A stretch of DNA of 64,000 nucleotides, from NCBI GenBank assembly GCA_039800965.1, contig JBDLPS010000221.1, positions 5,877-69,876 of the forward strand, in the 5' to 3' direction. A program made the position numbers and the translations under genes. Below the pieces are notes generated by a model that saw only the letters and a list, made by a program, of their open reading frames with translations, was not told the DNA's origin and did no database searches. Below are positions 27,602-64,000 of the stretch, in pieces. The DNA comes from Pseudomonadota bacterium (GTDB lineage: Bacteria; Pseudomonadota; Gammaproteobacteria; Steroidobacterales; Steroidobacteraceae). Positions within the stretch are counted from its first letter, which is position 1; every line of letters begins with the position of its first letter.

Positions 27602-28024
<423 letters not shown>

Positions 28025-44997: not shown

Positions 44998-45434
44998 GCG
45001 GCATGAGGACGAGGTACGGAGCGCGGAAGGCGCAGGCGGGATTCACCCTGCTGGAGCTGCTGGTGGTCATGGTGATCATCGGCTTGCTCGCGGGCTTTGT
45101 TGCGCCGCGATATTTCGCCCAGGTCGGCAAATCCGAGGTCAAGGCGGCCCGGGCCCAGATCGATGCCCTCGACAAGGCCCTCGAGCAGTACCGCATCGAC
45201 ATGGGTCACCTGCCGAGTGCGTCGCAGGGGCTGGAGGCACTCAACGTGGCGCCGCAGGGCGAGACGGGCTGGTCCGGTCCCTACCTCAAGAAGGCCGTGC
45301 CGCTGGATCCCTGGGGCAATGCCTACGTCTATGCCGTTCCCGGCACGCACGGCAACGACTTCGACCTCTTCTCGTTCGGCAAGGATGGTCGCGAAGGCGG
45401 CAAGGGCGAGGACGCGGACATCGGGAACTGGTGA
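44994..45434 (+). CDS. gspG: Type II secretion major pseudopilin GspG
   Basis: The prepilin leader ends at G|FTLLELLVVMVIIGLLAG with Glu at +5. The GspG-type C-terminus is DPWGNAYVYAVPGTHGNDFDLFSFGKDGREGG. Confidence 0.9.
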   Translation: MSGMRTRYGARKAQAGFTLLELLVVMVIIGLLAGFVAPRYFAQVGKSEVKAARAQIDALDKALEQYRIDMGHLPSASQGLEALNVAPQGETGWSGPYLKKAVPLDPWGNAYVYAVPGTHGNDFDLFSFGKDGREGGKGEDADIGNW

Positions 45435-45437
45435 CCG

Positions 45438-49070: not shown

Positions 49071-49591
49071 GCGCCCCGCGTTTCGAAATGGATTTCGCCC
49101 GCCGGCCTTACCGAGGTGGCGCCGCCGGCGTCCTGTTCGCCGTGCTGGGTGTGCTGCTGCTGGCCCTGACGCTTGCCTGGCAGCAGCGGCTGGATACGCG
49201 TCTGGCCGGGTTGGAACTGCGCAGCGCCGACTTGCAGCGCCGCCAGCAGGCCGCCGGATCGGCACCGCCGGTCGCCGGCCTGCAGCGCGCGCCACGTACC
49301 GCGACCTTGCTGGCGGTGCCTTGGTCGCCGTTGCTCGCCGGGCTCGAAAAGGCCAGCGCACAGCAGCGCGCGGACGTGGCGATACTCGCCATCGAACCCG
49401 ATGTCGCGCGACGCCGACTCAAGCTGTCGGGCGAGGCCCGCAATTTCAATGCCGTCGTGGAATACGTCGGGCGCCTGCAACGCATGAAATCGTTGCGACA
49501 TCCGATGCTCGAATCACATGAGATCCGGCTGGACGACGAGTACAAGCCGGTGCGCTTCCAGCTGACCGCCGAATGGGTGGACGCGCCATGA
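49067..49591 (+). CDS. Bitopic membrane protein in the PilN / GspL-TM position
   Basis: ATGA overlap with the upstream gene. It has a short cytoplasmic N-terminus and a single TM helix (GVLFAVLGVLLLALTLAW). A coiled-coil-like segment (LAGLELRSADLQRRQQ) follows. Confidence 0.55.
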   Translation: MSAPRFEMDFARRPYRGGAAGVLFAVLGVLLLALTLAWQQRLDTRLAGLELRSADLQRRQQAAGSAPPVAGLQRAPRTATLLAVPWSPLLAGLEKASAQQRADVAILAIEPDVARRRLKLSGEARNFNAVVEYVGRLQRMKSLRHPMLESHEIRLDDEYKPVRFQLTAEWVDAP

Positions 49592-50133
49592 CCTTGCAGG
49601 TCCGGATTTCACCGGCGCGACTGGTGGCTGTTGTCGAACAGGTGCTGCGCTCGGCCGGCCTGCCGCTGGTTGCCGGCGCCTGCCTGGTCGTTGCGGCGGC
49701 GGGCATCCTCGGCCTGCGGACGTTGCCGACGCGTGCTGCCATCGCGGCGCTCGACGGTCGCCTGCAGCAGCAGGTCGCTGCAGCCCGGGCGTTGCCGGCA
49801 CCGGCCAAGGCCGCCAAGGCGCAGGCACTGCCGCTGCGCGACCAGGCGCCACAGGTCGTCGAGCGCATCATGCGCGAAGCCGTCGCCGCCGAGGTCGATC
49901 TGGCGAGCGCCAAGTATGAATTCGTGGCGGCGCGTGACGGGATGCTGGCCCGCTATGCCATGACTTTCCCGGTGCATGCTTCGTACCCGAAGTTGCGCCG
50001 CTTCATCGACAAGGTGCTCGCGGGCGAGCCGTCCGTGGCCATCGAATCGCTGCGCATCGAGCGCAAGTCGATCGGCGTGAAGACGGTCGATGCCGAACTC
50101 CGCCTGTCGCTCTTCCTCGGGGAGGGGCAGTGA
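49588..50133 (+). CDS. Bitopic membrane protein in the PilO / GspM position
   Basis: ATGA overlap at 49588; an alternative ATG is at 49573. It has a single TM helix (LPLVAGACLVVAAAGILGL). The periplasmic domain ends VDAELRLSLF, a ferredoxin-like PilO/GspM-type pattern. Confidence 0.55.
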   Translation: MTLQVRISPARLVAVVEQVLRSAGLPLVAGACLVVAAAGILGLRTLPTRAAIAALDGRLQQQVAAARALPAPAKAAKAQALPLRDQAPQVVERIMREAVAAEVDLASAKYEFVAARDGMLARYAMTFPVHASYPKLRRFIDKVLAGEPSVAIESLRIERKSIGVKTVDAELRLSLFLGEGQ

Positions 50134-50654
50134 TGTCGCCGGCCCTCCGCTTGCGATTGCTGCTGGCCGGCGCCGCGATCGTCGCGGCCTACGTGTTCCT
50201 GGTGCCGTCGCCGGAGGATGCCTCGGTGGTTGAACCGGTCGCGGCCAGCGCTTCGTCCCGGCGTGCCCCGGTCCCTGCCGGGCGCGCCGCGGATGCGCGG
50301 GCTGCAACGTTCACCCGGCGCGACGCGCCATCGGACGATGCGGAGGCTTTCTTCGACGGCCAGACGTGGTTCGTGCCGCCGCCACCGCCACCGCCACCGC
50401 CACCGCCGCCGCCACCGCCGCCGCCACCACCACCCACGGCGCCGCCGTTGCCCTTCAAGGCCATCGGCAGCCTGGAACCGGTGGGCGCGCCCGCCGTGGT
50501 GTTCCTGCTGCGGGGCGAAAAACTCTACGACGTCCACGTGGGAGACACGCTGGACGCCGTGTACACGGTCGATTCGTTCGACAACAACACGCTGACCCTG
50601 ACCTACAAACCGCTGAACGTGCAGCAGACGCTGACGATCGGAGACGCGCGGTGA
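50130..50654 (+). CDS. Bitopic protein in the PilP / GspC position with a 20-residue polyproline tract
   Basis: N-terminal TM helix is LRLLLAGAAIVAAYVFLV. V-P20-TAPPLP is followed by a beta-rich approximately 70-aa C-domain (FKAIGSL...VVFLLRGEKLYDVHVGDTL...TLTY). That domain resembles the secretin-binding HR/PilP fold. Confidence 0.55.
   Translation: MMSPALRLRLLLAGAAIVAAYVFLVPSPEDASVVEPVAASASSRRAPVPAGRAADARAATFTRRDAPSDDAEAFFDGQTWFVPPPPPPPPPPPPPPPPPPPPTAPPLPFKAIGSLEPVGAPAVVFLLRGEKLYDVHVGDTLDAVYTVDSFDNNTLTLTYKPLNVQQTLTIGDAR
50376..50435 (+). repeat. 60-nt CCG/CCA proline-codon microsatellite (P20)
   Basis: I counted 20 consecutive Pro codons by hand: ccg ccg cca ccg cca ccg cca ccg cca ccg ccg ccg cca ccg ccg ccg cca cca cca ccc. 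The first half is an almost pure (CCGCCA)n hexamer. Confidence 0.95.
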
Positions 50655-53113
50655 ATCGAAACCATACTGGGACTGCGGTCCTGCTGGCCTTCGCGGCCTT
50701 GTTCCTGGCTTCCTGCACCGGTGCGTCCTCCCTGCACCGCGATGGCATGGGTGGCGTCCGCAAGGGTGCCTACGAAGAAGGCCTGCAGAAGTTGCAGCAG
50801 GCCATCGCCAAGGAGCCCGGCAACGTCGAATACCGCCTCGACCTGCGCCGCCAGCAACAGGCAGCGGTTGCGGCGCTGCTCGACGAAGGCGATGCCGCGC
50901 GCGCCACCGGCAATGCCGCGGCAGCCGAGAAATCCTATCGCCGCGTACTGTCGATCGAAGCCGCCAATGTGCGTGCCGCCGCCGGAATCGAGGGACTGCG
51001 TGCCGACCAGCGCCATGCGCAGGCCGTCGTCGACGCGCAGCAGGCCTTGCAGCGGGGCGAGATGGAGCGCGCGGATGCGCTGGTCCGCAAGGTGCTGATG
51101 GAGAACCCGTCGCACGCGCCGGCGCAGGCGCTGGCCGCGCGGCTCGAAGCGTCGCGGCCCGCCAATGCGGTGCCTCGCCTGCGCAGTCGTGACAACCGTC
51201 CGGTGACCCTGCAGTTCCGGGATGCGCAGACCAAGATGATCTTCGAAGTGCTGTCGCGGCAAACCGGCATCAACTTCATCTTCGACAAGGACGTGAAGAC
51301 CGACGGCCGCACCACGATCTTCGTCCGCGATGTCGCGGTCGAGCAGGCAATCGACCTGATCCTCGGACAGAACCAGCTGGCCCGCCAGGTGCTGTCCGAC
51401 AACCTCGTGATGGTCTACCCGAACACCGCTGCCAAGCAGAAGGATTACCAGGACCAGCTCGTCCGCACGTTCTACCTGAACTCCGCGGCGCCCAAGGACG
51501 TCGAGAACCTCCTCAAGACCGTGCTCGGTGCGAAGGCGCTCGTCGTCAACGAACGCGCCAATGCGATCGTGATGCGCGACACGCCGGAAGTGGTGCGCAT
51601 GGCCGAGAAGCTCGTGGCATCGGTCGACCTGGCCGAGCCCGAGGTCATGCTGGAGGTCGAGGTGCTCGAGGTGTCCCGCAGCCGGCTGCAGCAGCTGGGC
51701 ATCCTGTATCCCGGCAGCGCGAAATTCAGCGCGCCGGAAGCCCTGATCGTCAACGACATCGCACGGCTCAACGGCTACAGCATCAACGTCTCGCAGCTGA
51801 GCGCGACCGTGGACGTGCTCAAGACCAACGGCAATTCCAACGTGCTGGCGAGTCCACGGATCCGCGCGCGCAACAAGGAAAAGGCCAAGGTCCTCATCGG
51901 CAGTCGCGTGCCGGTCATCACGACCGCGGCGAGCTCGTCGGGCAACGGTGGCGTCATCAACAATACCCAGGTGCAGTACCTGGAGGTCGGCCTGACGCTC
52001 GACGTCGAACCGACGATCTATCCAACGAACGACGTGGCCATCAAGGTCAACCTCGAGGTCAGCTCGATCACCAACCGCGTGACGGTCGGCCAGACCGTGG
52101 CCTACGAGATCGGCACGCGCAACGCATCCACGCTCCTGCAGTTGCGCGATGGCGAGACCCAGATCCTCGCCGGCCTCATCCGCGACAGCGAGACGCGCGA
52201 CGCGACCAAGATCCCCGTGTTGGGCGACATCCCGGTGCTCGGTCGCCTGTTCGGCGACCACACCTCGAAGCGCGACAAGACCGAGGTGGTGTTGTCGATC
52301 ACGCCGCGGCTGGTCCGCCCGGCGATTCGTCCGTCCACCAACACCACCGAGTTCTGGTTCGGCACGGAAGGCCGCAACGGACCGCCGTTGTCGGCTGCGC
52401 CCATCCAGGGCGGGAGCCCTGCGCCGGTGCTGACGGCACCGAGCGCGCCCGCGCCCGCCCGTCCTGCGCCAGCCGCCGGCGCGGCCCCGGTGGCGCCCCA
52501 GGCGACACCCCCCGTTGCCGCTGCGCCAGCAGAGGTGCAGGCCGATGCCGCCGTCGCAACCGTTGCCGCAGCGCCGGACGCACCGCCGCCGGATGTCTCC
52601 GCACCGCTGCCCGCGCCCCCGGCGGACGCGCCGGCCGGGACCGGTCGCTTCAACCGCTTCCGCGGCGCGCCCGCGCGCCCGTCCGCCGCGGCGGCAGTGT
52701 CGCAGCCCGCAGCCGGTTTGCAGGCCCAGGCCAGCGGACCTGCCACGGTGCACATGGGCGAGGAGTTCACCGTCGCCGTGCAGCTCAACGCGCCACAGGG
52801 CGTGCCGCGCGTGCGCGCGCAGTTGCGCTTCGACGTCGCCGGTTTCGAATTCCTGGGCGCCGAGCCCGGTGCGTTCCTGTCGAGCGCCGAGGCCTCGCGC
52901 GTGGCGACTTCCGGTGGCGGCATGCAGCTTGATGCGAACGCCAGCGGCGACCAGCTCCTCTCCGGGAGCGGGGAACTCATGCGCGTGCGCTTCAAGGCCC
53001 TGCAGGCACGCCCGCGAGCGACCTTCGCCGGCCAGGTCAGCGTCCCCTCTGAATCCGGCGCGCCGGGCCCTTCGGGCACCATCATGCCCTTCGACATGGC
53101 GGTCCTGCCCTAG
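50651..53113 (+). CDS. Lipidated TPR - secretin - Ala/Pro linker - cohesin-like fusion protein (GspD/PilQ family)
   Basis: GTG 50651 overlaps the upstream stop (GTGA). Lipobox is FLASC. A TPR-like helical region spans about nt 50762-51147, followed by N0/N1-type domains (VTLQFRDAQTKMIFEVLSRQTGINFIFD). The secretin core is NVLASPRIRARNKEKAKVLIGSRVPVIT...VVLSITPRLV. An approximately 120-aa Ala/Pro-rich linker leads to a C-terminal beta module. The 915-aa track ORF is a run-on. Confidence 0.88.
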   Translation: MNRNHTGTAVLLAFAALFLASCTGASSLHRDGMGGVRKGAYEEGLQKLQQAIAKEPGNVEYRLDLRRQQQAAVAALLDEGDAARATGNAAAAEKSYRRVLSIEAANVRAAAGIEGLRADQRHAQAVVDAQQALQRGEMERADALVRKVLMENPSHAPAQALAARLEASRPANAVPRLRSRDNRPVTLQFRDAQTKMIFEVLSRQTGINFIFDKDVKTDGRTTIFVRDVAVEQAIDLILGQNQLARQVLSDNLVMVYPNTAAKQKDYQDQLVRTFYLNSAAPKDVENLLKTVLGAKALVVNERANAIVMRDTPEVVRMAEKLVASVDLAEPEVMLEVEVLEVSRSRLQQLGILYPGSAKFSAPEALIVNDIARLNGYSINVSQLSATVDVLKTNGNSNVLASPRIRARNKEKAKVLIGSRVPVITTAASSSGNGGVINNTQVQYLEVGLTLDVEPTIYPTNDVAIKVNLEVSSITNRVTVGQTVAYEIGTRNASTLLQLRDGETQILAGLIRDSETRDATKIPVLGDIPVLGRLFGDHTSKRDKTEVVLSITPRLVRPAIRPSTNTTEFWFGTEGRNGPPLSAAPIQGGSPAPVLTAPSAPAPARPAPAAGAAPVAPQATPPVAAAPAEVQADAAVATVAAAPDAPPPDVSAPLPAPPADAPAGTGRFNRFRGAPARPSAAAAVSQPAAGLQAQASGPATVHMGEEFTVAVQLNAPQGVPRVRAQLRFDVAGFEFLGAEPGAFLSSAEASRVATSGGGMQLDANASGDQLLSGSGELMRVRFKALQARPRATFAGQVSVPSESGAPGPSGTIMPFDMAVLP
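52736..53110 (+). other. Cohesin-like C-terminal module of the secretin
   Basis: GPATVHMGEEFTVAVQLNAPQGVPRVRAQLRFDVAGFEFLGAEPGAF...SGSGELMRVRFKAL follows the cohesin pattern. That pattern is G-x-F-x-V-x-V, then a hydrophobic x-F-x-hydrophobic-x-hydrophobic beta-strand stretch as in cohesin (here LRFDVAGF), then G-x-G-x-L-x-x-V-x-F-K. The call is by eye only. Confidence 0.5.
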
Positions 53114-53133
53114 GGCCCCGCTGCACGCGCGCC

Positions 53134-53616
53134 ATGGCACCGCATCGCACCGCTTCCGGGTTCACGCTCATCGAACTCGTCATCACCGTGGCGATCGTCG
53201 CCCTGCTGGCGACGGCCGCCGTGCCGCTTGCCGGGGTGGCGATCCAGCGTGGCAAGGAAGCGGAGCTGCGGTCGGCGCTGCGCGAGATTCGTGGCGCGAT
53301 CGATGCCTACAAGTCGGCGGGCGAGCAGGGGAGCATCCTGGTGGATGCCGATGCGTCAGGTTATCCGCCGGACCTGCGCACGCTCGTGGCGGGCGTCGTC
53401 GATGCCCGCAGTCCCAAGGGCGTGAAACTGTATTTCCTGCGCCGAATTCCGCGCGATCCGTTCTTTCCGGACGGCAGCGCGCCGGCGGAGCAGACCTGGG
53501 GATTACGCAGCCATTCGAGCCCGCCAGACAGGCCGGAACCCGGCGTGGATGTGTTCGACGTCCATTCGTTCTCCAACCAGCGAGGCCTGAACGGAGTGCC
53601 CTACCATGAGTGGTAA
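53134..53616 (+). CDS. Pseudopilin (prepilin-type N-terminal methylation domain)
   Basis: Cleavage motif is SG|FTLIELVITVAIVALLA with Glu at +5. 160 aa. Confidence 0.8.
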   Translation: MAPHRTASGFTLIELVITVAIVALLATAAVPLAGVAIQRGKEAELRSALREIRGAIDAYKSAGEQGSILVDADASGYPPDLRTLVAGVVDARSPKGVKLYFLRRIPRDPFFPDGSAPAEQTWGLRSHSSPPDRPEPGVDVFDVHSFSNQRGLNGVPYHEW

Positions 53617-53986
53617 ACACCGCCGCGGCTTCACGCTCATCGAGTTGCTGGTGGTGATGGCCATCATCGCCACGCTGCTGTCGGTGGTGGTTCCCCGCTA
53701 TTTCCATACGCTCCAGCATTCGCGCGAGGCCGTGCTCAAGCACGACCTGGGCGTCCTGCGCGAGGCCATCGACAAATACCGGGGCGACGTCGGCAAGTAT
53801 CCCGAGTCGCTCGACGACCTCGTGCAGCATCGCTACATCCGCGCGGTGCCGGAGGATCCCATCACGCGCTCCGCGACCACCTGGCAGCCGGTCGCCTCGG
53901 AGGACCCGGATGATCCGGGCCTGCGCGACGTGTTCAGCGGCGCCGAAGGTGCCGCGTCGGACGGCACCACCTACCGGGACTGGTGA
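53606..53986 (+). CDS. Pseudopilin, GspG-like
   Basis: Cleavage motif is RG|FTLIELLVVMAIIATLL with Glu at +5. A GspG-like helix LREAIDKYRGDVGKYPESLDDL is present. It overlaps the upstream gene by 11 nt. Confidence 0.8.
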   Translation: MSGKHRRGFTLIELLVVMAIIATLLSVVVPRYFHTLQHSREAVLKHDLGVLREAIDKYRGDVGKYPESLDDLVQHRYIRAVPEDPITRSATTWQPVASEDPDDPGLRDVFSGAEGAASDGTTYRDW

Positions 53987-54501
53987 TCGTGCGCCAGCAG
54001 GCCGGCTTTACCTACCTGGGCTTGCTTGCCGCGATCGTCGTGCTCGGCGTGACGATGGCGGCGGCCGGGACAGTGTGGAAGACGCAGAGCCTGCGCGAGC
54101 GCGAGAAGGAGCTGCTTTTCGTCGGCGGCCAGTTCCGGGATGCCATCGGACGGTACCGTATCGCCAACGGGGCATTCCCGCGCACGCTGGCCGACCTCGT
54201 CACCGACACCCGCTTGCCCACGCCGCGGCGTCACCTGCGCCGTATCTATGCCGACCCGATGAACGGCGGCACGGAGTGGGAACTGTTGCGGTCGCCTGAC
54301 GGCGGCATCATGGGCGTGGCCAGCCTCTCGCGCGGCAAACCGCTCAAGCAGGCGAACTTCGGCGCGGACGACAGCGCTTTCAAGGACGCGGATTGCTACT
54401 GTGCCTGGCGTTTCGTGTACCAGGGCAAGTCGCTCGGCCGCAGTCGCGACCTGGCGCCGACCGATTCCAACGTCCGGTCTTCCGGGTCGAACGCACCCTG
54501 A
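53983..54501 (+). CDS. Pseudopilin lacking Glu+5
   Basis: GTG start in a GTGA overlap. The motif is AG|FTYLGLLAAIVVLGV, where position +5 is Gly rather than Glu. 172 aa. Confidence 0.7.
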   Translation: MIVRQQAGFTYLGLLAAIVVLGVTMAAAGTVWKTQSLREREKELLFVGGQFRDAIGRYRIANGAFPRTLADLVTDTRLPTPRRHLRRIYADPMNGGTEWELLRSPDGGIMGVASLSRGKPLKQANFGADDSAFKDADCYCAWRFVYQGKSLGRSRDLAPTDSNVRSSGSNAP

Positions 54502-54745
54502 ATCGTCGCGACGCGGTCCGGAACTGCATCACATAAGTTAAATGGAAGAGGGGAATTCCTACCCCTCTGCATAGGGAATACACCCCACGAGGGGTTGCTT
54601 CTTCCCACCTCCGGCGCCGATGTCGTCCGACTGACGCCACAAGCCTTCGTTTCGCAATATGACGCCATGCGCGAAAACCTTTTTCGCGCCGCATTTCATG
54701 TTGAAGAGGCAGTGGGTCCCGAAGGGGCCCTGTTTGGAGGCTCAG
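54502..54745 (+). promoter_or_regulatory. Structured, lower-GC intergenic leader or promoter region upstream of the giant gene
   Basis: By hand count, nt 54521-54600 are about 49% G+C against roughly two-thirds elsewhere. Three hairpins are present: 54547-54569 (agagggg-N9-cccctct), about 54582-54595 (acccc-acga-ggggt) and 54669-54689 (gcgcgaaaa-cct-ttttcgcgc, a 9-bp perfect stem). A GGAGG RBS sits at 54736-54740. Confidence 0.45.
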
Positions 54746-57700
54746 ATGTCCGGTTCGCGTTTCCTGCGCAGTGTTCTCGCCGCCACGCTCGTGGTCTTCG
54801 GAGGTCTTGGCCTCGCCGAAGCCGCGCCCGTGACCCTGAAGGTCGTCAGCGCGAGGGCGGAGTCCCGGTGGACCAACCCGTCCACCCAGGCCGTCACCGG
54901 CATCAGCAAGGGCGCTGTAGTCACGCACTACAAGTACCTCATCAACGTCGACAATTCGGGCGACACCTCGACGCAGCGTTCGCCCGCGCTCGGCACGGGT
55001 TGCAACCCGGCCGATGCGGGTTACCCCGACAGCTGCAAGTGGACCTCCATCGCGGGCACTGCCTCGTTCGCGCCGGTCTACACGCAGGGCACGCAGGCGG
55101 ATTTCGCCACCGCCATGAACATCCCGGACGGCCGCTACCTGATCTCGGTGCTTGCGCCGGGCTTCAAGCTCGATGGCCGCCACTTCAAGGTCGCCAACGG
55201 CATCGCCACCTGGGAAGGCAAGTCCGGCGCGGCGCCGGCTTCCGAGGTGCTGGTCGAGATGCAGCCGTGGCCGTTGCCGGACGCGCAGATCCAGGCGGCG
55301 GTCTTCGAGGACATCTCGCCGGTCAACAGCGCGCCGGATCTTCCGGTGGAGCATGGTCTCGCGGGTTTCCAGGCGCACATCACCGATTACATCGGTGAAG
55401 TGACCACCGACATCTATGGCGCACCGCTGTGCGACACCGGCGCCTGCCTCAGCGCCTGCTATGTCGTCTTCAACGGCCAGGACATCGGCACGGTGCAGCC
55501 GCTCGACGCGGCCGGCCGCTGCCCGACGGATCCCCCGACCGCCAGCACCGCGATGTATTACTGCGATGGCCCGAACGGCAGCACGGCGCCCTACATGGTC
55601 GCGCGCAGCGACACGGCGCCGTACAACCGCTTCGCCTGTCCTTCCGCGCTGGGCAGCGTGGCCGTGAAGCAGGGCCCCGTCCCTGATGCGGCCGCCCTGC
55701 ACACGGGCGTCATCCAGGGCAAGGTCAAGGTGCCGAACATCGGCCCGAACCGTTACGCGCTGGCCGTCACGCCGCCGGACGGTTACTTCTGGGCCCAGAC
55801 GACCACGCTCGAAGGCAACAGCGACTGGGACGCCTGGGTGATGGAAGGCGCAACCGGTCTCGATACCGAGCTTGCCGTCGCCGGCGAGCCCTTCCCGGGC
55901 ATCATCTTCGGCTACGTCCCGCAGCCGGGCACGTCGACCGCGCAGACGGTGCGCACGTATTCGGCAGTCAGCTGCCGTCGCGGCGTGACGAACTGTCCCT
56001 ACAACATCTATCCGACGCTGACCGGCACTTCCACGATCACGGGTGTCGTCGAGGCCGTGAAGATCTTCGTCCCCGCGACCGGTGGCATCGCCGGCCTGCC
56101 CGGCCAGATCTGGGGCGGCATGCAGGGTGCCAAGATCGACAAGCCGATCGAGTACCCCTGGGTCACGCTCACCGACCTGTCCAATGGCGATTCGATCGTC
56201 TGGGCCGGCCGCGGTGACGTGCAAGGTCGCTTCTCCATCCCGAACGTCCCGGCCGGCACCTACACCCTGACCTGGTGGGACCAGCCGCAGAACGAGATCC
56301 TCGACCTCGTGAACGTCACCGTTCGCGCCGGCGAGACCGTCGACATGGGCATCCTGCCGCTGACCGGCTGGTGGACCGTCTTCGATGGCTATGTCTTCAA
56401 TGACGCCAACCGCAACGGCATCAAGGACGAGGGCGAGGCGGGCATCCCCAACTACACGTTGACGTTGCGCAAGCGCGAGAACTCGCAGATGGATCGCGGC
56501 ACGACTGCCGCCACCACCGATTCCAACGGCTATTACGTCTTCGAATCCGCCTATCCCATGACGCAGTGGCTGGTGATGGAGGCCTATGACGACCTCCATT
56601 ACACGACCGGCGTCACCTACCAGGCCGACAACCAGCCCGATCCGACCACGGTGATCGGTTCGGGCGTGGACGTCAGCGTGCATCCGATCATCGGCCTTTC
56701 AGGTCGCATCGACTGGGGCAAGCACATCTACGACGGCACCGGCACGAACGGCGTCGACCCGCGCAACGGCGGCATCGTCGGCAGCATCAGCTACGACACC
56801 ACCCGCAACGAAAAGGACCCGCGCTACGCGGCGGTGGAAGTCTGGCAGCCTGGCGTGCCGGACCTCACGGTCAAGCTGTGGAAGCCTGTCCCCTGCAACA
56901 CCCACGTGGGCACGCCTTGCAGCGCGGACCGTCGCTATGAGCTCGCGGCCGATGGCTCCTACGCCAAGGGCCTGCTGCTGAACACCTACCTGTCCGAGAC
57001 CTGGACGCGTCCGGCCGGCTGCACCGTCCGCAACGCCGATGGCACGCCCCTGGTGCACGGTGTCGATGAACAGGTGCTGCCGCTCGACGACACGCTGCCC
57101 TGCATCGAGGCGCCGCTGACGGGCATCCAGTTCGGCACCTACGCCACGGACCAGGGCACCCCTGACGCGAACTTCGGCGCTGCCGTCAACGGCAACTGGG
57201 GCTTCGGCGACGGTTGCCTCGTCTCGGGCTTCAACACGACGACCCAGGCCTGCAACAACGCGAGCGAACCGCTGGCCGCGCTGCCGGCTGCGAACTATCT
57301 GGTACAGGTCGACCTGCAGTCCCTCAAGGACGCGCAGGGTCGCCCGGTCTATCAGGTGACGCGCGAGGAAGACGTGAACGTGGCCGCCGGCGACGAGTTC
57401 GCCCCGGCCGTGCCGCCGCCGGCCTGCGTCGGCGCGCTGCATGTGGTCGACTCGTCCGGCAACGACGGCTACCTGACCGGTGCCGGCACGGCCCCTGCCG
57501 AGGGCCAGCAGCGTCCGCTCTGCGACGTGAAGCTCGTGACCCTTACCAATGGCAAGTCGGTCGCCCCGATGTTCAACGTCTTCACGGACGTTCCGCTCCC
57601 GGGTCGCCACTGGTTCATCATCATCGATGACCTGAACTTCTCCAGTAACCCGAAGTCCACGACCTTCGGCGAGAAGGCGGGCATTCCCTTCGCCCCGGTC

Positions 57701-60700
57701 GGCATCTACGATTTCACCAACCGTCTCGTGAAGACGGTGGAATCAGACTACAACGGCCTGGCTGACGTGCTGCTGCCGTCGACCAACCGCATCAACTGCC
57801 CGACGCCCTCCGGCGTCTGCGCGAACCTGTACCGTTACGTGGGCAACGACCCGGGTGTCCCGGGCCGCCTGAACACGAACTACAACCCGGCCTTCCGCAC
57901 CATCGCGGCCGAATTCGAAGTCCTGCCGGGCCTGATCGTGCCGGCGGACCTCGCGCCGAGCCAGGTCGGTGTCACCGTGCAGCTCCCGGGCTCGCAGGTG
58001 ACGACCAACCTGCAGTGCAAGGTCGAGGACGTCGCGCCCGAGCTGTACGCGGTGTCTCGCCCGTACGTGACGGTGGGCAACAACGCTAGCACGGCGCAGC
58101 GCCAGTTCATCATCTATGGCAAGGCCTTCGGTGCCGCCGTCGGCCAGGTGCAGCTGGATGGCACGGCCCTCACGGCCACTGCAGTGACCTGGACCAACAC
58201 GCAGATCACGGTCACGGTACCGACCAACACGACGCAGGGCCCGCGCCAGCTGACGATCCTTGCCGCCAACGGCAAGCGCACCGTCAACGGCCTGACGCTG
58301 CATGTGATGGGCAACACCTACGCGCCCCAGCTCTTCGAGGTGGGCCCGAACGTGGCCAATGCCCGCTATCGCCCCGCCGAGACGCTCCCGGAGACCGCAA
58401 ACCATGCCGTGCAGAACGCGCTGGATGACGCGGGCGTGTGGGTAGGCGCCGGCACCAACCGCACGGCCCTGGTCGTGGTCTACCCGAACACGCCGGCGGT
58501 GGGTTCGCGCCAGAACCCGCGCGGCGCCTATTACGAGAACCTGATCATCACCAGCCGCGTGAAGCTCCAGGGCGTCGGCCCGGGCAGCCCGGACGGCTCG
58601 ATCCGCGGTTCCATCCTCGATGGCAGTGCCTATGCCGGCGACAGCCCGGTCGCGACCGACTGGCGCGCTCGCCTGACGCAGTTCGGCACCTTCGACGCGA
58701 ACAACAACTTCATCCCCGGCTGGGCCGGCAACAGCGCAATCTATGACGGCGCCGTCATCACGCTGTACCTGCCGTCCCCGTCCTCGACGGTCCTGGCGGA
58801 GCGCCGCCAGGCCTTCCCGACGACCTACACTGCGGCCACGGCGCCCTCGATCGATGGCTTCGACATCCGCGGTGGCGACCAGCAGGGCTTCCCGACCAAC
58901 ATCAACGTGATCGGTGGCGGCCCCACGGGCCTTGCGCCCGGAGTGGTCACGCAGGGTGGCGCGATCTTCGCGAACGCCTGGGCGAACAATCTGCAGATCA
59001 CCAACAACACCGTGCAGAACAATGGCGGTGCCTACGGCACCCTGCGCCTCGGCACGCCCGACCTGACGGGCGCCGATCCCAGCAGCCATAACGGCAACGT
59101 GGTCATCGCGCACAACCGCGTGATCCTCAACGCCGGCACGAACCAGGCGGGTGGCATCGGCCTCTTCAACGGGTCCGACAACTACCAGATCGCCTTCAAC
59201 GACATCTGCGGCAACTTCTCGGCCGAGTACGGCGGCGGCATCAGCGTCGTCGGCTACAGCCCGGGCGGCCGCATCAACAACAACCGCATCTACTTCAACC
59301 GCTCCTACGACGAGGGTGGTGGCGTGATGATCGCGGGCGCCCTGCCGGCCAACGCGGCGACGCTGTCGCCGGGCTCGGGTGCCGTCGACATCTACGGCAA
59401 CCTCATCCAGGGCAACCTGTCGAACGACGACGGCGGCGGCATCCGCTTCCTGATGTCCGGCAACTTCCCGATGAACGTCTACAACAACTTCATCGTGGAC
59501 AACATCTCGACGCACGAGGGCGGCGGCATCAGCATCAACGATGCGCCGAACGTCCGCATCTACAACAACACGATCGCCAAGAACATCACGACGGCCACGG
59601 CGATCACCAGCACGGGCGTGCCGGCTCCCGCCGGTGTCTCGACCTCGCTGAACAGCGGCCTGCTGCAGGACACCCTGCCGGCCGGTTCGCCGCTGCACAG
59701 CAACCCGCTGCTGTTCAACAACCTGTTCTGGGACAACCGTGCCGGCACGCGCACGCTGGACCTGGTGGCCGGCATCGGGGCCGCGAACGACACCTCGCCG
59801 ATCGACTACTGGGACCTCGGCGTCTCGGACGATCCGACGGTTTCGCTCTCGCCCACGAACTCGCTCGTCCAGCAGGACGTGGCGCAGCATGCCTACACCA
59901 CCGATGCGTCCAACAAGACGACCGACCCTCGCTTCCTGACGCCGTATGACATCGGGGTGACGTTCAACGTCTGGCGCAACAACCCGGCCTTCCTGGGCGC
60001 CATCATGATCTCGGCGGACCTCCCGCCGTCGCTGATGGGCGACTTCCACCTGCGCGGCAACTCGCCGGCGGTGAACGTCGCGGCGAACAGCAAGGCGCTG
60101 CCGTCCTACCAGGTCGTCGGCACCGCGACGAGCGTCGCGGCGCCCTCGAACGACATCGACGGCGACACGCGTCCGGCGCTCGGTGCCCGCGACATCGGCG
60201 GCGACGAAATGCTGCCGGTCTCGGCCGACCTGCGCATCACCAAGACGGACGGCGTGACCGCTGCTTCGCCGGGCGATGTCCTGCACTACACCATCACCGT
60301 GACCAACAGCTCGGCGAACTTCGTCTGGGGTGCCTGGGTGCGTGACACCATCCCGGCCGCCCTCACGAACGTGAGCTGGACCTGCGTGGCCTCCACCGGC
60401 TCGGCCTGTGCCGCCGTCAGCGGCAGCGGGAACATCTCCGAGTACGTGGACCTCGCTCCCGCCGGCACCGTCACCTACGTGCTGACGGGCACGGTCAGCG
60501 GTGCGGTGGGTTCGACGCTGTCGAATACCGCGACGGTCACTCCGTCGCTGGGCACGACGGATTCGAACACGACCAACAACTCGGCGACGGATACGGACCA
60601 GATCGCCGGCACGGCTGACCTCGAGGTCTCGATCTCGACGGACAAGTCGCGCTACAACCGCAACGAGAACATCCGTTACACGATCGTCGCCAAGAACAAC

Positions 60701-61351
60701 GGCCCTGCGGACGTCATCGGCGCCCGCCTGACCGACCTGTTCCCGACGGCGCTCACCGGCGTGACCTGGACCTGTACGGCCACGGGCGGCGCGGCCTGCG
60801 TGCCGGCCAGCGGCACGGGTAACCTGAACGCCAAGACCATCAACCTGCCGATGGGTGGCATCGTGACCCTGGTCGCGACGGGCCGCATCAACTCGAACGC
60901 CGCGACCATCAACAACACCGTCAGCATCGCGCTGCCGGCGGGTGCGCCGTTCGTCGACCCGAACATGGCCAACAACACCGCGACGGCCAGCGTCACGGTC
61001 AACGGCCACCACGTGTCGTCGATCACCGGTTCGGGCACGCGCACCAGCACCACGCGCTGGACGGCGAACGCCACGATCACGATCCACAACCGCGACCACC
61101 TGGCTGCGGCGGGCGTGACGGTGACGGGCACCTGGCGCAACAACGGTGGTGGCAACACCACGACCGTGACCTGCACGACGAATGCGTCGGGCCAGTGCAC
61201 GGTGACCCGCACCAACATCTCGACGACGGAAGGTTCGTACACCTTCACGGTCACCAACCTGACCGTGCCGGCCTCCGCCGGGGTGTCGAACTACCAGAAC
61301 GCGATCAACGAGGTCGGTGCGACGGCCAGCGTGAGGGTGGTCCGGCCGTAA
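54746..61351 (+). CDS. Giant (2201 aa) secreted multidomain protein: Ig/CarboxypepD_reg/SdrD-B-like repeats, IPT/TIG, right-handed parallel beta-helix, tandem DUF11
   Basis: Signal peptide is MSGSRFLRSVLAATLVVFGGLGLAEA. The SdrD-B-like segment is FDGYVFNDANRNGIKDEGEAGIPNYTLTL...TDSNGYYVF (about 56370-56600). IPT/TIG spans about 58030-58315. Beta-helix repeats are NNTVQNNGGAYG, NNRIYFNRSYDEGGGVMI, GNLSNDDGGGIRF and DNISTHEGGGISINDA, with a DIDGDTRP...DIGGDE cap (about 58530-60210). Two DUF11-type repeats begin DLRITKTDG and DLEVSISTDK (about 60227-61000). The track ORF start at 54659 is an in-frame extension. Confidence 0.85.
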   Translation: MSGSRFLRSVLAATLVVFGGLGLAEAAPVTLKVVSARAESRWTNPSTQAVTGISKGAVVTHYKYLINVDNSGDTSTQRSPALGTGCNPADAGYPDSCKWTSIAGTASFAPVYTQGTQADFATAMNIPDGRYLISVLAPGFKLDGRHFKVANGIATWEGKSGAAPASEVLVEMQPWPLPDAQIQAAVFEDISPVNSAPDLPVEHGLAGFQAHITDYIGEVTTDIYGAPLCDTGACLSACYVVFNGQDIGTVQPLDAAGRCPTDPPTASTAMYYCDGPNGSTAPYMVARSDTAPYNRFACPSALGSVAVKQGPVPDAAALHTGVIQGKVKVPNIGPNRYALAVTPPDGYFWAQTTTLEGNSDWDAWVMEGATGLDTELAVAGEPFPGIIFGYVPQPGTSTAQTVRTYSAVSCRRGVTNCPYNIYPTLTGTSTITGVVEAVKIFVPATGGIAGLPGQIWGGMQGAKIDKPIEYPWVTLTDLSNGDSIVWAGRGDVQGRFSIPNVPAGTYTLTWWDQPQNEILDLVNVTVRAGETVDMGILPLTGWWTVFDGYVFNDANRNGIKDEGEAGIPNYTLTLRKRENSQMDRGTTAATTDSNGYYVFESAYPMTQWLVMEAYDDLHYTTGVTYQADNQPDPTTVIGSGVDVSVHPIIGLSGRIDWGKHIYDGTGTNGVDPRNGGIVGSISYDTTRNEKDPRYAAVEVWQPGVPDLTVKLWKPVPCNTHVGTPCSADRRYELAADGSYAKGLLLNTYLSETWTRPAGCTVRNADGTPLVHGVDEQVLPLDDTLPCIEAPLTGIQFGTYATDQGTPDANFGAAVNGNWGFGDGCLVSGFNTTTQACNNASEPLAALPAANYLVQVDLQSLKDAQGRPVYQVTREEDVNVAAGDEFAPAVPPPACVGALHVVDSSGNDGYLTGAGTAPAEGQQRPLCDVKLVTLTNGKSVAPMFNVFTDVPLPGRHWFIIIDDLNFSSNPKSTTFGEKAGIPFAPVGIYDFTNRLVKTVESDYNGLADVLLPSTNRINCPTPSGVCANLYRYVGNDPGVPGRLNTNYNPAFRTIAAEFEVLPGLIVPADLAPSQVGVTVQLPGSQVTTNLQCKVEDVAPELYAVSRPYVTVGNNASTAQRQFIIYGKAFGAAVGQVQLDGTALTATAVTWTNTQITVTVPTNTTQGPRQLTILAANGKRTVNGLTLHVMGNTYAPQLFEVGPNVANARYRPAETLPETANHAVQNALDDAGVWVGAGTNRTALVVVYPNTPAVGSRQNPRGAYYENLIITSRVKLQGVGPGSPDGSIRGSILDGSAYAGDSPVATDWRARLTQFGTFDANNNFIPGWAGNSAIYDGAVITLYLPSPSSTVLAERRQAFPTTYTAATAPSIDGFDIRGGDQQGFPTNINVIGGGPTGLAPGVVTQGGAIFANAWANNLQITNNTVQNNGGAYGTLRLGTPDLTGADPSSHNGNVVIAHNRVILNAGTNQAGGIGLFNGSDNYQIAFNDICGNFSAEYGGGISVVGYSPGGRINNNRIYFNRSYDEGGGVMIAGALPANAATLSPGSGAVDIYGNLIQGNLSNDDGGGIRFLMSGNFPMNVYNNFIVDNISTHEGGGISINDAPNVRIYNNTIAKNITTATAITSTGVPAPAGVSTSLNSGLLQDTLPAGSPLHSNPLLFNNLFWDNRAGTRTLDLVAGIGAANDTSPIDYWDLGVSDDPTVSLSPTNSLVQQDVAQHAYTTDASNKTTDPRFLTPYDIGVTFNVWRNNPAFLGAIMISADLPPSLMGDFHLRGNSPAVNVAANSKALPSYQVVGTATSVAAPSNDIDGDTRPALGARDIGGDEMLPVSADLRITKTDGVTAASPGDVLHYTITVTNSSANFVWGAWVRDTIPAALTNVSWTCVASTGSACAAVSGSGNISEYVDLAPAGTVTYVLTGTVSGAVGSTLSNTATVTPSLGTTDSNTTNNSATDTDQIAGTADLEVSISTDKSRYNRNENIRYTIVAKNNGPADVIGARLTDLFPTALTGVTWTCTATGGAACVPASGTGNLNAKTINLPMGGIVTLVATGRINSNAATINNTVSIALPAGAPFVDPNMANNTATASVTVNGHHVSSITGSGTRTSTTRWTANATITIHNRDHLAAAGVTVTGTWRNNGGGNTTTVTCTTNASGQCTVTRTNISTTEGSYTFTVTNLTVPASAGVSNYQNAINEVGATASVRVVRP

Positions 61352-61390
61352 CCGGACCGACCCTCCACGCGAGATCAAGGAGAATTTGAG

Positions 61391-62875
61391 ATGACACAGC
61401 GTTCAGACGACCAGGCCCGGACCCGCCGCTACTTCCTCAAGCTGGCGGGCGGCTCCACGCTCGCCCTGGCGGGTACCGGCCTCCTGCCCTTCAACCGGCT
61501 GCTCGGCCCCGCGGCCATGCAGTCGGCGGAGGCCGCGGTCACCACCAATCCGGCGCCGGACCTCTTCATGGCCGGCACGGACGGCTGGATCAGCCTGCCG
61601 AAGAACCCGGCCCTGCAGTCGGCGTACTTCGGCGCGCAGACCCATCCGGACAATTTCGTCCCGGATGCGAAGTTCAGCACCTACATCTTCGGTTTCCGTG
61701 ACGTCACGGGCCTGACGGACGCGCAGCGCGCGGGGCAGAAGATGAAGGCCCAGCACAATGCGCCGCTGTTCTGGCTCGACGAGGTCGATCCGGCCAATCC
61801 GAAGGCCAAGCAGTTCCGCGTGAACCTGATGAACCTCGGCCTGGCGATGCGCCCCGACCTGTTCGATGCGCATACGATCCACTACCACGGTTTCCGCAAC
61901 GTGCTGCCGATCTTCGACGGCGAGCCGCAGGGTTCCGTCGCCGTGACGGCCGGCCGCGTCTTCCAGTACGTGTACCGTCCGCGCGACCCGGGCACCTACA
62001 TGTGGCATTGCCACGTGGAAGAGATCGAGCACATCCACATGGGCATGACCGGGCCGCTCTTCGTCCGTCCGAAGCAGAACGGCACGAGCTACACCTGGCA
62101 GGGCAAGACCTACGACAAGTTCGTCTACAACGACGGCGACGGTTCCACCGGCTACGACCGAGAGTTCGCGATGTTCATGTCGGAGGTCTGGTGCGATTCG
62201 CACTGGGCCGACTCCCATATCGAGTTGCCGGAGTGGAGCGACTACCGCGCCGATTTCTGCCTGCTCAACGGTCGCGTCTACCCGGACACCATTGCGCCGA
62301 ACTCGCTGATGAACATGCCGGCCAACGCCGCGGTCGCCAAGAACCTCCATTCCCTGCCGGTGCAGCGCGACGCGAGCGGCGACCTGCTGTCGCGTCCCGG
62401 CCATGAGCACCTCCAGTACCAGCCGATGTCGGCGCTGGTGGAGTGCAATGCCGGTGATCGCGTCCTGCTGCGCTTCGCCAACCTGGGTTTCCTGGAATCG
62501 GCGATGACGCTGGCCGGCATCCGCATGACCGTCGTCGGCAAGGACGCGACGCACATGCGGGGTCGTCCGGACAACACCAATCAGCGTGCCGACACCAGCT
62601 ACGACGCCAGCACCCTGAGCTTCGGCCCGGGCGAGAGCATCGACGCGCTCTTCACCGCGCCGGCGTTCTCGGGCGGTTCCGGCAGTTCGGGCCAGGGCTA
62701 CGACGTCTACCTGCTGTTCGACCGTGCCTACGAGCGCACGAACAACAAGGCGGCGGGCGAGGGCGGGCTGCCTTACGGCGGTCGCCAGACCGAGGTCCGC
62801 GTCTACCCGGCCGGTACGGTGCAGCAGCAGTTGCTGCCGAACACCAACCCGCATCTGAACAGCGACGTCTACTGA
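61391..62875 (+). CDS. Tat-exported multicopper-oxidase-like protein 1 (cupredoxin domain 1 with ligands + copper-less domain 2)
   Basis: An AAGGAG RBS lies 8 nt before the ATG. The twin-arginine leader is TRRYFLKLAGGSTLALAG. HYHG is at nt 61880-61891 and WHCHVEEIEHIHMGM has its HCH at 62006-62014. The rest resembles an MCO domain 2 (LLNGRVYPDT...GDRVLLRFANLG...TVVGKDA). Confidence 0.8.
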   Translation: MTQRSDDQARTRRYFLKLAGGSTLALAGTGLLPFNRLLGPAAMQSAEAAVTTNPAPDLFMAGTDGWISLPKNPALQSAYFGAQTHPDNFVPDAKFSTYIFGFRDVTGLTDAQRAGQKMKAQHNAPLFWLDEVDPANPKAKQFRVNLMNLGLAMRPDLFDAHTIHYHGFRNVLPIFDGEPQGSVAVTAGRVFQYVYRPRDPGTYMWHCHVEEIEHIHMGMTGPLFVRPKQNGTSYTWQGKTYDKFVYNDGDGSTGYDREFAMFMSEVWCDSHWADSHIELPEWSDYRADFCLLNGRVYPDTIAPNSLMNMPANAAVAKNLHSLPVQRDASGDLLSRPGHEHLQYQPMSALVECNAGDRVLLRFANLGFLESAMTLAGIRMTVVGKDATHMRGRPDNTNQRADTSYDASTLSFGPGESIDALFTAPAFSGGSGSSGQGYDVYLLFDRAYERTNNKAAGEGGLPYGGRQTEVRVYPAGTVQQQLLPNTNPHLNSDVY

Positions 62876-62885
62876 CCGCTGCCCC

Positions 62886-64000
62886 ATGAGGACTTTCCCG
62901 ATGAATCTTTCGATCCTCAGTCCCTTCCGCCGCAGCCTCGTGCTCGGCATGGCGGTCGCTGCCGCGGGCCTGCTCGCACCGGCGCAGCAGGCCGTCGCCG
63001 CCGGCACCTCGAAAACCGGCGTGGTGTGCACGACGGGTGCCGCCGGCGCACCGGTGTTCACGCTCACCGCGAAGGAAGGCTACATCCAGCTGCCGGACGG
63101 CAACACGATGTACATGTGGAGCTATGCCTCCGGCGGTTCCGACTTCCAGTACCCGGGCCCGGTCCTGTGCGTGAACGAAGGTGACACCGTCACCGTCGTC
63201 CTGAGCAACCAGCTGGCCGAGGATGTGTCGATCATGTTCCCCGGCCAGGAAGGCGTGCTGGCCAATGGTTCGGCCGCCCAGCCCCAGGGCAGCGGCGCCG
63301 GCCTGACGTCCCTCACCAACGTCGCTCCGGTCGGCGGCAGCGTGACGTACAGCTTCGTCGCGTCGAGGGCGGGCACCTTCGTCTACGAGAGCGGCACGGA
63401 ACCGCAGAAGCAGGTCCGCATGGGCCTCTTCGGTATGCTGATCGTGCGGCCGGCCGGCCACGCGGACCAGTTGAATGCCCGCAGCGACAGCCAGTTCACC
63501 TCCGCCAGCGCGACCACCGTGAACGAGGAGTTCATGGTCCAGCTGTCGGAAATCGATCCCTACCAGCACTGGGCGGCGGAGGCGGGGGAAACCTTCGACC
63601 TGTCGACCTATCATCCGCGCTACTGGCTGATGAACGGCCGCGGCTTCCCGGACACCATCGCCGACAACCACTCGGCGTTCCTGCCCGCACAGCCTTACGG
63701 TTCGCTGGCGCGCATCAATCCCTGGGATCCGATCAAGCATCCGCTGCCGGGTGCGATCCGCTACATGAACCTCACGACGACGGAGATCCCGTTCCATCCG
63801 CACGGCCAGAACGGCACGGTGGTGGGTCGCGACGGCGCCGCGTTGCAGACCCCGGACGGCAAGGATGCGTCCTTCGAGAAGTTCGTGGTCAACATCGGCC
63901 CGGGCCAGACCTATGACGTGCTGTTCCAGTGGTACGACGCGGAAGCCTACAGTCCCACCGCGGCCGCCGGCAGCGCGCATGAGTTTCCGGTCGCCATGCC
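62886..64000 (+). CDS. Multicopper-oxidase-like protein 2, 3' end beyond the window (not in the supplied ORF track)
   Basis: My own translation is MRTFPMNLSILSPFRRSLVLGMAVAAAGLLAPAQQAVA|AG..., with an alternative ATG at 62901. A cupredoxin domain 1 pattern is GDTVTVVLSNQLAEDVSIMFPGQ and GTFVYESG...MGLFGMLIVRP. An L3-like FHPHG is at nt 63795-63803. The frame is open to nt 64000. Confidence 0.75.
   Translation, partial: MRTFPMNLSILSPFRRSLVLGMAVAAAGLLAPAQQAVAAGTSKTGVVCTTGAAGAPVFTLTAKEGYIQLPDGNTMYMWSYASGGSDFQYPGPVLCVNEGDTVTVVLSNQLAEDVSIMFPGQEGVLANGSAAQPQGSGAGLTSLTNVAPVGGSVTYSFVASRAGTFVYESGTEPQKQVRMGLFGMLIVRPAGHADQLNARSDSQFTSASATTVNEEFMVQLSEIDPYQHWAAEAGETFDLSTYHPRYWLMNGRGFPDTIADNHSAFLPAQPYGSLARINPWDPIKHPLPGAIRYMNLTTTEIPFHPHGQNGTVVGRDGAALQTPDGKDASFEKFVVNIGPGQTYDVLFQWYDAEAYSPTAAAGSAHEFPVAM

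Follow-up and report, generated by a model that had tools for sequence, protein, structure and literature searches.

A 2201-residue secreted protein encoded with a split multicopper oxidase in a conserved six-gene cassette, and its possible role as an extracellular oxidase platform

We analyzed a 64,000-nt stretch of contig JBDLPS010000221.1 from a Steroidobacteraceae genome (Gammaproteobacteria; GenBank assembly GCA_039800965.1), referred to below as the window. A gene at 54746-61351 on its forward strand encodes a secreted mosaic protein of 2201 amino acids (aa), here called the giant protein, and leads a conserved cassette that also encodes three multicopper oxidase (MCO)-like paralogues, MCO1, MCO2, and MCO3. 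The copper ligands of the oxidase are divided between MCO1 and MCO2. We favor, at somewhat better than even chances, a reading in which the giant protein serves this apparently split MCO as a large extracellular platform or as a substrate-binding partner, and in which, in the source organism, it leaves the cell by the Sec pathway and then through an adjacent machine resembling a type II secretion system (T2SS). Its tie to the oxidases is the strongest link found here, stronger than its tie to the secretion machine. An earlier inspection of the window sequence without database searches (the original prediction) had suggested a functional tie of the protein to the neighboring oxidases; through conserved synteny this became the best-supported of its ideas, and the two may well act together.

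The cassette and its divided copper sites

The cassette genes within the window are as follows.

54746..61351, forward strand: giant secreted protein gene, 2201 aa plus stop; first gene of the cassette
61391..62875, forward strand: MCO1, 494 aa; twin-arginine translocation (Tat) signal TRRYFLK; HxxHxH plus HCHx5HxHMxM in the first cupredoxin domain
62886..64000, forward strand, cut by the window end: MCO2; first HxH pair (FHPHG) visible; no type-1 ligands

Cassette linkage was scanned in GTDB species representatives from two starting points, the core of the giant protein (360 relatives, best 80 loci inspected) and MCO1 (at least 562 relatives, best 79 new loci inspected). Wherever enough DNA was present, in approximately 150 loci, the gene order was giant protein, MCO1, MCO2, MCO3, a small protein, and an S8 (subtilisin-like) protease. 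MCO1-3 lay downstream of the giant gene in ∼75 of 82 giant-derived loci, the remaining ones being on contigs that end early; in all MCO1-derived loci with enough DNA, MCO1 was preceded by the giant gene and followed by MCO2, MCO3, the small protein, and S8. The four loci that were annotated gene by gene, which come from three phyla (Ca. Ideonella esbjergensis, a Caldilineaceae metagenome-assembled genome (MAG), Steroidobacteraceae, and an Acidobacteriota MAG), agreed on this order, which is identical downstream of the giant gene. In these loci the MCO-like proteins 1, 2, and 3 measure ∼450, ∼435, and 970-1320 aa, respectively; the small protein (∼150-177 aa) has no Pfam match and the last gene encodes a Peptidase_S8 protein with immunoglobulin (Ig)-like domains. 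The window ends inside MCO2, and MCO3, the small gene, and S8 presumably lie just beyond it.

Hundreds of species, from at least five phyla, carry the cassette; the hosts are mostly Chloroflexota and Actinomycetota, with others in Acidobacteriota, Myxococcota, and Pseudomonadota. Cultured carriers include Cryobacterium spp., Nocardioides spp., Intrasporangium flavum, Cellulomonas sp., Actinotalea sp., Xylanimonas sp. McL0601, and Oscillochloris sp. ZM17-4. In the literature we found no description of the six-gene cassette or of a heteromeric split MCO, and none of the cassette proteins reached a family cut-off in NCBIfam.

Several features of the neighborhoods were also recorded. In ∼40 loci, mostly from Chloroflexota (e.g., L024, L027, L035, and L042 in our locus numbering), a histidine kinase (∼470 aa) and a LuxR/GerE-type response regulator (∼225 aa) are encoded immediately upstream of the giant gene, at roughly 7-9.5 kb in locus coordinates; Actinomycetota loci have OmpR-type or SARP/AAA-type regulators in place of this pair. 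In some diderms the genes beside the cassette have copper-handling functions: SCO1/SenC in one case and, in a second, a gene for a CzcB-like protein that contains a YHS domain (L004 7757-8431; L006 6841-7734). In Caldilineaceae BC1.69 the whole cassette is duplicated in tandem (L002, L036, and L138 on one contig).

The partition of the copper ligands was derived from 61-69 orthologues per MCO paralogue (loci L001-L165). MCO1 carries the type-1 copper site and, of the eight trinuclear-cluster histidines, four; these ligands do not vary among 62 orthologues. The orthologues of MCO2 have two HxH pairs in the C-terminal domain, which are the other four trinuclear-cluster histidines, and lack the ligands found in MCO1. 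MCO3 has no conserved copper ligands and ends in Ig-like domains. The three paralogues are mutually 21-33% identical, and their nearest PDB relatives are two-domain MCOs and NirK (e.g., 3g5w and 2zwn), whose ligand set (a type-1 site plus eight His) is complete only when MCO1 is joined with MCO2. Two-domain MCOs and NirK are trimers with copper sites at the interfaces of neighboring subunits. Because the ligands are split among the paralogues and the known relatives are trimeric with interface sites, we infer that MCO1, MCO2, and MCO3 form an obligate heterotrimer that holds a single type-1 copper and a single trinuclear cluster. The type-1 copper would sit in MCO1 and the trinuclear cluster at the MCO1/MCO2 interface, and the ring would be closed by MCO3 as a third subunit without copper. 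Two-domain MCOs and NirK are homotrimers with three equivalent sites, whereas this assembly would contain a single set; in that respect it would resemble the ceruloplasmin-type six-domain enzymes, with the addition of a giant accessory protein.

Export of the giant protein and the adjacent T2SS-like machine

The features that bear on expression and export are listed below.

54735..54739, forward strand: ribosome-binding site GGAGG, 6 nt 5' of the ATG at 54746; read from the sequence
54746..54823, forward strand: Sec (signal peptidase I, SPI) signal peptide, aa 1-26, cleavage after AEA; from the sequence
50747..53113, forward strand: divergent secretin with STN, Secretin_N, and Secretin domains and a C-terminal cohesin-like module
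53134..54501, forward strand: three small GspG-like pseudopilins, pp1, pp2, and pp3, immediately upstream of the giant gene

The giant open reading frame (ORF) was accepted as a genuine coding sequence because its third-position GC of 0.90 (0.59 and 0.52 at positions 1 and 2) is typical for DNA of 68% GC, the value of the window. Long antisense ORFs, for example 57743-61378 on the reverse strand, were dismissed as high-GC artefacts. A longer in-frame start, ATG 54659, was also dismissed, as no ribosome-binding site precedes it and the signal peptide would then lie inside the protein; homologues have N-termini that match the start at 54746 and not that at 54659. The signal peptide reads MSGSRFLRSVLAATLVVFGGLGLAEA, with AP following the cleavage site, and has no lipobox. 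The mature protein has a calculated mass of 227 kDa, a pI of 4.8, and 28 Cys. The spacer between the giant gene and MCO1 is 39 nt long and holds an AAGGAG ribosome-binding site. A promoter and terminator scan around the giant gene gave nothing above shuffled expectation, including a terminator-like match in the gap upstream of it (54502-54745).

A motif scan of the giant protein found no RTX (repeats-in-toxin) GGxGxD, no haem-binding CxxCH, no thioester motif, no PEP-CTERM, and no hydrophobic C-terminal tail. It has no autotransporter or type I secretion system (T1SS) family in Pfam or NCBIfam, and its sole LPxTG match lies inside the chain (aa 537) and is not followed by a hydrophobic tail. 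RTX/T1SS export, autotransport, PEP-CTERM or LPXTG anchoring, haem binding, and a thioester protein were therefore dismissed on motifs and Pfam. The protein thus has what is looked for in a T2SS substrate, a Sec or Tat signal without a rival export signal. Coding GC, ribosome-binding site, Sec signal, and at least 564 homologues agree with the secreted 2201-aa mosaic ORF of the original prediction; its statements that a C-terminal sorting signal, an autotransporter barrel, and RTX/T1SS repeats are lacking, and that only 39 nt with a strong ribosome-binding site separate the gene from MCO1, also held. The signals differ within the cassette: MCO1 has a Tat signal (window 61391-61500), whereas the giant protein and MCO2 have Sec-like signals, which indicates two inner-membrane routes among the cassette products.

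The T2SS-like cluster spans ∼44305-54501, upstream of the giant gene. It encodes SLT, GspG (which passes the NCBIfam equivalog cut-off), GspF, GspE, a PilN-like and a GspM-like protein, followed by a proline-rich ORF, the divergent secretin with its cohesin-like tail, and then the three additional GspG-like pseudopilins. Genes of the GspH-K type were not found in the cluster. Its three "minor" pseudopilins are all short proteins that resemble GspG (also in L004 and L008), and pp3 has a degenerate GFTYLG N-terminus without Glu5. The proline-rich ORF (50130-50654) contains a run of ∼21 consecutive prolines and is the upstream neighbor of the secretin in 66 of 71 loci. It stays with the secretin even where the remaining machine is missing (L055 and L070), and it may be a pilotin- or PilP-like partner. 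Those two loci belong to the gammaproteobacterial MAG MFD02242.bin.2.255, which has two cassettes, each with its own secretin directly upstream.

Whether the machine belongs to the giant protein depends on the side from which the linkage is counted. Among the 80 giant-derived loci, only three (from uncultured Gammaproteobacteria, two of them from one MAG) had a related secretin within 10 kb upstream. The secretin itself has 71 relatives, nearly all Steroidobacteraceae-like; 39 loci combine a secretin of at least 45% identity with 7 kb or more of downstream DNA, and in 33 of them a cassette of the MCO trio and a giant protein comes right after the pseudopilins. Five of these 33 loci resemble the window ("type A") and 28 are divergent ("type B"). 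In type B an MCO1-like gene directly follows the pseudopilins, the proteins MCO1', MCO2', and MCO3' are ∼30% identical to those of the window, and the giant-like protein is encoded last, with 22-24% identity over up to 1082 aa. Type B was recorded at L169, L172-L177, L181, L183-L185, L187, L192, L196, L198-L201, L203, L204, L207, L208, L211, L214, L215, L223, L226-L228, L233, L235, and L236. Partial linkages were also seen, with the secretin alone or pseudopilins alone beside the giant gene; in Steroidobacteraceae giant loci, pp1/pp3-related pseudopilins alone lie upstream. In one Steroidobacteraceae MAG the machine is convergent to the cassette, just downstream of S8 (L008 and L182, one contig). 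The loci of more distant secretins (Pseudomonas, Comamonadaceae, Herbaspirillum, and Zoogloea) have no MCO cassette. Since 33 of 39 loci are coupled from the secretin side and 3 of 80 from the giant side, the machine is best explained as a clade-specific export solution for the whole cassette. We concluded that, as judged from gene neighborhoods, it is a lineage-specific addition and not what defines the giant protein.

These counts also bear on a rival explanation that we consider possible but doubtful, namely that the adjacent machine has the giant protein as its main free cargo and would exist chiefly for the export of that protein. The Sec signal without any other sorting signal is consistent with it, as are the position of the giant gene directly after the pseudopilin genes, the secretin-only and pseudopilin-only linkages in related Gammaproteobacteria, and the coupling of the secretin clade to MCO/giant cassettes. 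However, in 28 of the 33 coupled loci it is the MCO1-like gene that follows the pseudopilins and the distant giant-like gene comes last, so the linkage of the secretin is to the cassette and not to the giant protein specifically. In addition, the MCO proteins bear export signals of their own, and most of the giant family occurs in genomes without such a machine nearby. The T2SS export route of the original prediction accordingly stood within the secretin clade and fell for most of the family, where orthologues lie away from such secretion loci, an arrangement it had itself named beforehand as speaking against it. Its term "main cargo" could not be separated from one of several cargos, given the Tat motif of MCO1 and the signal peptides of other cassette proteins.

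Conserved core and predicted fold of the giant protein

The first search with the giant protein gave 564 homologues, and an exhaustive search with aa 27-1110 gave 740 representatives of 50%-identity clusters at E ≤ 1e-30. Their database labels are generic ("uncharacterized repeat protein TIGR01451", "choice-of-anchor D", "IPT/TIG", and "pectin lyase-like"). Among Burkholderiales, Steroidobacteraceae, Anaeromyxobacteraceae, Caldilineaceae, and Ardenticatenaceae, the identity is 50-68% over 80-100% of the length. The conserved core comprises aa ∼324-1825, with peaks at aa 450-1100 and 1400-1650 (up to 88% identity per 50-aa block). Occupancy and identity collapse beyond aa ∼1830, where many homologues swap DUF11 for other Ig-like modules, and the terminal Ig-like domain (aa 2089-2201) is not conserved. 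Among the 440 near-invariant columns of the family, G, N, P, and D are frequent and Cys occupies 13, a composition that fits a calcium- and disulfide-stabilized extracellular fold.

The domains, from Pfam, family profiles, and AlphaFold2 (AF2) models, are as follows.

54824..58045, forward strand: N-terminal array of ∼10 beta-sandwich domains (transthyretin/CnaB/Ig-like), aa 27-1100; AF2
56141..56344, forward strand: fn3_3 / CarboxypepD_reg-like domain, aa 466-533; Pfam E = 6e-7 and 9e-5
56390..56608, forward strand: SdrD B-like domain (SdrD_B), aa 549-621; Pfam E = 5e-10; in 21/21 homologues
58058..58315, forward strand: IPT/TIG domain, aa ∼1105-1190; family profile, PF01833, AF2 sandwich
58328..60220, forward strand: predicted right-handed parallel beta-helix, aa ∼1195-1825; AF2 mean confidence (pLDDT) 84.4, N-terminal helix cap
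60221..60994, forward strand: two DUF11 (CLIPPER) Ig-like domains, aa ∼1826-1952 and 1958-2083; Pfam E = 4e-26, TIGR01451 E = 3e-16
61010..61348, forward strand: C-terminal Thr/Asn-rich Ig-like domain, aa 2089-2201; AF2 strands; lineage-specific

The protein was modeled with AF2 from a 60-sequence alignment in two pieces. The first piece (aa 27-1110; pLDDT 80.9, predicted TM score (pTM) 0.83) is an all-beta stack of sandwich domains, and the pTM of 0.83 across 1084 residues argues, within the model, for a fixed compact arrangement over beads on a string. Within this array the fn3_3 match recurs in 19 of 21 homologues and CarboxypepD_reg in 16 of 21, and the SdrD_B domain holds the Ca-binding loop DANRNGIKDEGE. 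The second piece (aa 1100-2201) reached pLDDT 84.4 and pTM 0.72. The family profile of its IPT/TIG region matches CGTase domain D and an IPT chain in PDB, and PF01833 was found in 12 of 21 homologues. The beta-helix model shows periodic strands of 3-5 residues behind the capping helix; PF13229 (Beta_helix) matched 8 of 21 close homologues and gave no match for the window protein at E ≤ 0.1. The GGG turns and the C-terminal cap DIDGDTRP...DIGGDE of the helix are present and invariant across the family. Just before the GGG turns of four successive coils runs an invariant ladder (E1494, D1522/E1523, D1561/D1562, and H1590/E1591); we take this acidic/His ladder to be the likeliest functional or binding surface of the protein. 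The domain order of the original prediction (beta-sandwich array, IPT/TIG, beta-helix, DUF11 twice, terminal Ig-like) was confirmed by Pfam, profiles, and AF2, with the beta-helix as a predicted fold.

Foldseek searches of PDB with both models returned generic sandwich arrays, including a TIE protein and integrin legs, at a global TM of at most 0.19. For aa 27-1110 these were SdrD, Gram-positive pilin, alpha-2-macroglobulin, and PL4-type (polysaccharide lyase family 4) sandwiches at a global TM below 0.12; for aa 1100-2201 the Ig-like tail dominates, and no beta-helix structure is among the 50 matches listed. A PDB sequence search with the giant protein alone gave nothing at E ≤ 1, and a search with the family profile gave matches limited to the IPT and SdrD-B domains and no catalytic relative. 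Three identities were rejected. A multicopper oxidase was excluded by the lack of a Cu-oxidase Pfam match and of any HxH in the sequence, with four near-invariant His family-wide; an alpha-2-macroglobulin/thioester protein by low TM values for the MG-array fold matches and the lack of a CxEQ thioester motif; and a PL4 rhamnogalacturonan lyase because domain II (fn3_3) alone matches, with a target-normalized TM of ∼0.16-0.17 to 1nkg.

A glycan-directed role in a broader sense was weighed on the same evidence. In this explanation, which we regard as unlikely, the giant protein would act by itself on carbohydrates, as a beta-helix lyase or hydrolase whose accessory domains resemble those of PL4. 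It would open up a matrix of polysaccharide, and the oxidases would work independently on phenolics that are released or form cross-links. The invariant acidic ladder on a right-handed beta-helix, the PL4 domain II match in 19 of 21 homologues, and the weak Foldseek matches to rhamnogalacturonan lyase 1nkg would agree with such an enzyme, and some cultured hosts belong to Cellulomonas and Xylanimonas, genera of plant-polymer degraders. However, no lyase or hydrolase catalytic family matched in Pfam, NCBIfam, or PDB, even by family profile, the PL4 fold match is poor, and the invariable linkage to the MCO trio is unexpected for a stand-alone enzyme. The idea of the original prediction that the protein might be an enzyme in its own right found no support in sequence or fold (PDB, Pfam, and Foldseek).

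The SdrD_B and DUF11 domains raise another explanation: a fibrillar adhesin or matrix protein, or a PilY1-like protein at the tip of a pp1-pp3 pseudopilus, with the oxidases merely co-regulated. Both domain types are typical of adhesin stalks, and in Steroidobacteraceae pseudopilin genes adjoin the giant gene even without the remaining machine. CLIPPER (DUF11) domains have a CnaA-like fold and can carry an intramolecular isopeptide bond (bioRxiv 10.1101/2025.04.25.650565). By eye, the first DUF11 of the giant protein keeps residues resembling the CLIPPER isopeptide triad (Lys in ITKTD, Asp in VRDTIP, and Asn in SNTATV); the second has Ser at the place of the triad Lys, so only one DUF11 of the two may be cross-linked. 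SdrD-B/CLIPPER fibrillar adhesins thus have domain types in common with the giant protein, but here such domains are few (two DUF11 and one SdrD_B), and both DUF11 copies belong to the variable tail. The core has a compact predicted fold, unlike stalk-and-tip adhesins, and its 50-68% identity across phyla together with the confident fold sets it apart from a fast-evolving adhesin. Neither a membrane nor a sortase anchor was found at the C-terminus of any of 120 giant homologues, and most hosts have no pilin genes nearby. We consider an adhesin improbable.

Least probable, in our estimate, is a NosD-like maturation factor whose beta-helix would load or assemble the copper centers outside the working enzyme: a PbH1-type (Pfam Beta_helix) helix is linked to copper enzymes, a NosD match (PF05048) appears weakly in 1 of 21 homologues (E = 0.004) and copper-handling genes (SCO1/SenC and YHS) flank some loci, but the other 20 homologues lack the match, NosD works with the NosFY ABC transporter and NosL, of which the annotated cassettes have no ABC transporter genes or such partners, and a Ca-binding, disulfide-rich secreted protein of 2000 aa is far oversized for an assembly factor.

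The proposed platform role and comparison with known systems

In the favored reading, the giant protein would be the conserved non-redox component of an extracellular oxidase system and would bind the oxidase, its substrate (a polymer or a mineral), or both. At the C-terminus, the variable Ig/DUF11 modules could be lineage-specific spacers or retention modules, and the S8 protease may mature one or more cassette components. The giant protein would cross the inner membrane via Sec and MCO1 via Tat; the outer membrane would probably be crossed through the atypical T2SS-like machine with its GspG, three GspG-like pseudopilins, and divergent secretin.

Several observations weigh against this reading. 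The T2SS genes are separated from the giant gene by a gap of 244 nt (54502..54745, forward strand, from pp3 to the giant gene), which may be a transcript boundary or a regulatory/operator site; it contains two small hairpins (GAGGGG..CCCCTC at ∼54546-54568 and ACCCC..GGGGT at 54582-54595). A folded protein of 227 kDa would be unusually large for a T2SS substrate, and the cassette occurs without an adjacent T2SS in the diderms Ideonella, Oxalobacteraceae, Methylobacter, Anaeromyxobacter, and Acidobacteriota. Finally, the conserved core has no catalytic or ligand-binding family match in Pfam, NCBIfam, or PDB, and because no known family matches it, the case for a platform or substrate binder is made from architecture and linkage.

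A more far-reaching version is advanced tentatively, as we think it rather unlikely to hold in full. The cassette would encode a new extracellular oxidase holoenzyme, with a split-copper heterotrimer mounted on a Ca-stabilized sandwich/beta-helix platform of ∼2000 residues and matured by a dedicated subtilase. It would have spread horizontally to over 500 species belonging to five or more phyla and acquired its own atypical T2SS in Steroidobacteraceae-like Gammaproteobacteria. The ladder would present a polymer or metal substrate to the oxidase, for example Mn(II), Fe(II), or humic or lignin-type phenolics.

Extracellular MCOs drive Mn and Fe oxidation and the turnover of humic and lignin-type material, and to our knowledge the known bacterial ones are single polypeptides or homotrimers. 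The Mnx complex of Bacillus is an extracellular multi-subunit MCO, consisting of MnxG with the accessory proteins MnxE and MnxF from one operon; MnxG is itself a complete MCO, accompanied by small accessory subunits. Between the Mnx complex and the cassette we detected no sequence similarity. As summarized in PMC3543383 (citing Mehta et al., 2006), the multicopper protein OmpB of Geobacter lies on the outer surface, is exported by an atypical T2SS, and has been implicated in reactions with insoluble metal oxides. The atypical T2SS of Geobacter sulfurreducens (PulG/OxpG/TklG) has several GspG-like pseudopilins, as does the machine in the window, a likeness of gene content. OmpB is a single polypeptide with MCO motifs, whereas in the cassette two of the three paralogues share the ligands between them, and the first gene of the operon encodes a conserved 2000-aa partner that is not an MCO. 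Pseudomonas putida GB-1 offers a second case: a non-canonical Gsp-like system, the Xcm ("Gsp-related") pathway, exports the Mn-oxidizing factor (de Vrind et al., 2003, as cited in PMC3056050). The likeness lies in a Gsp-like variant needed for export of an extracellular metal oxidase; the Pseudomonas secretins are ∼39-41% identical to that of the window and their loci carry no MCO cassette. We know of no giant beta-helix partner or split MCO trio described for P. putida GB-1.

If the platform reading is correct, the cassette would represent a heteromeric way of building an MCO active site, a widespread new player in the redox chemistry of soil, sediment, and activated sludge, and a third case of a T2SS variant dedicated to a metal oxidase. 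The scale is considerable, with at least 562 MCO1-type relatives in GTDB representatives and 740 giant-core clusters, and the giant partner is functionally unnamed in databases. Because the cassette occurs in cultured Actinomycetes and Chloroflexota, these ideas are directly testable.

Two other genes of the window were noted. A 740-aa reprolysin-like (M12B) metalloprotease (25901-28123, reverse strand) ends in a C-terminal DUF11, the module type also present near the end of the giant protein; in the source organism, DUF11 may be a tag that exported proteins have in common. An 1823-aa UvrA-like protein (32882-38353, reverse strand) has at least four ABC/P-loop regions and looks like a tandemly duplicated UvrA paralogue.

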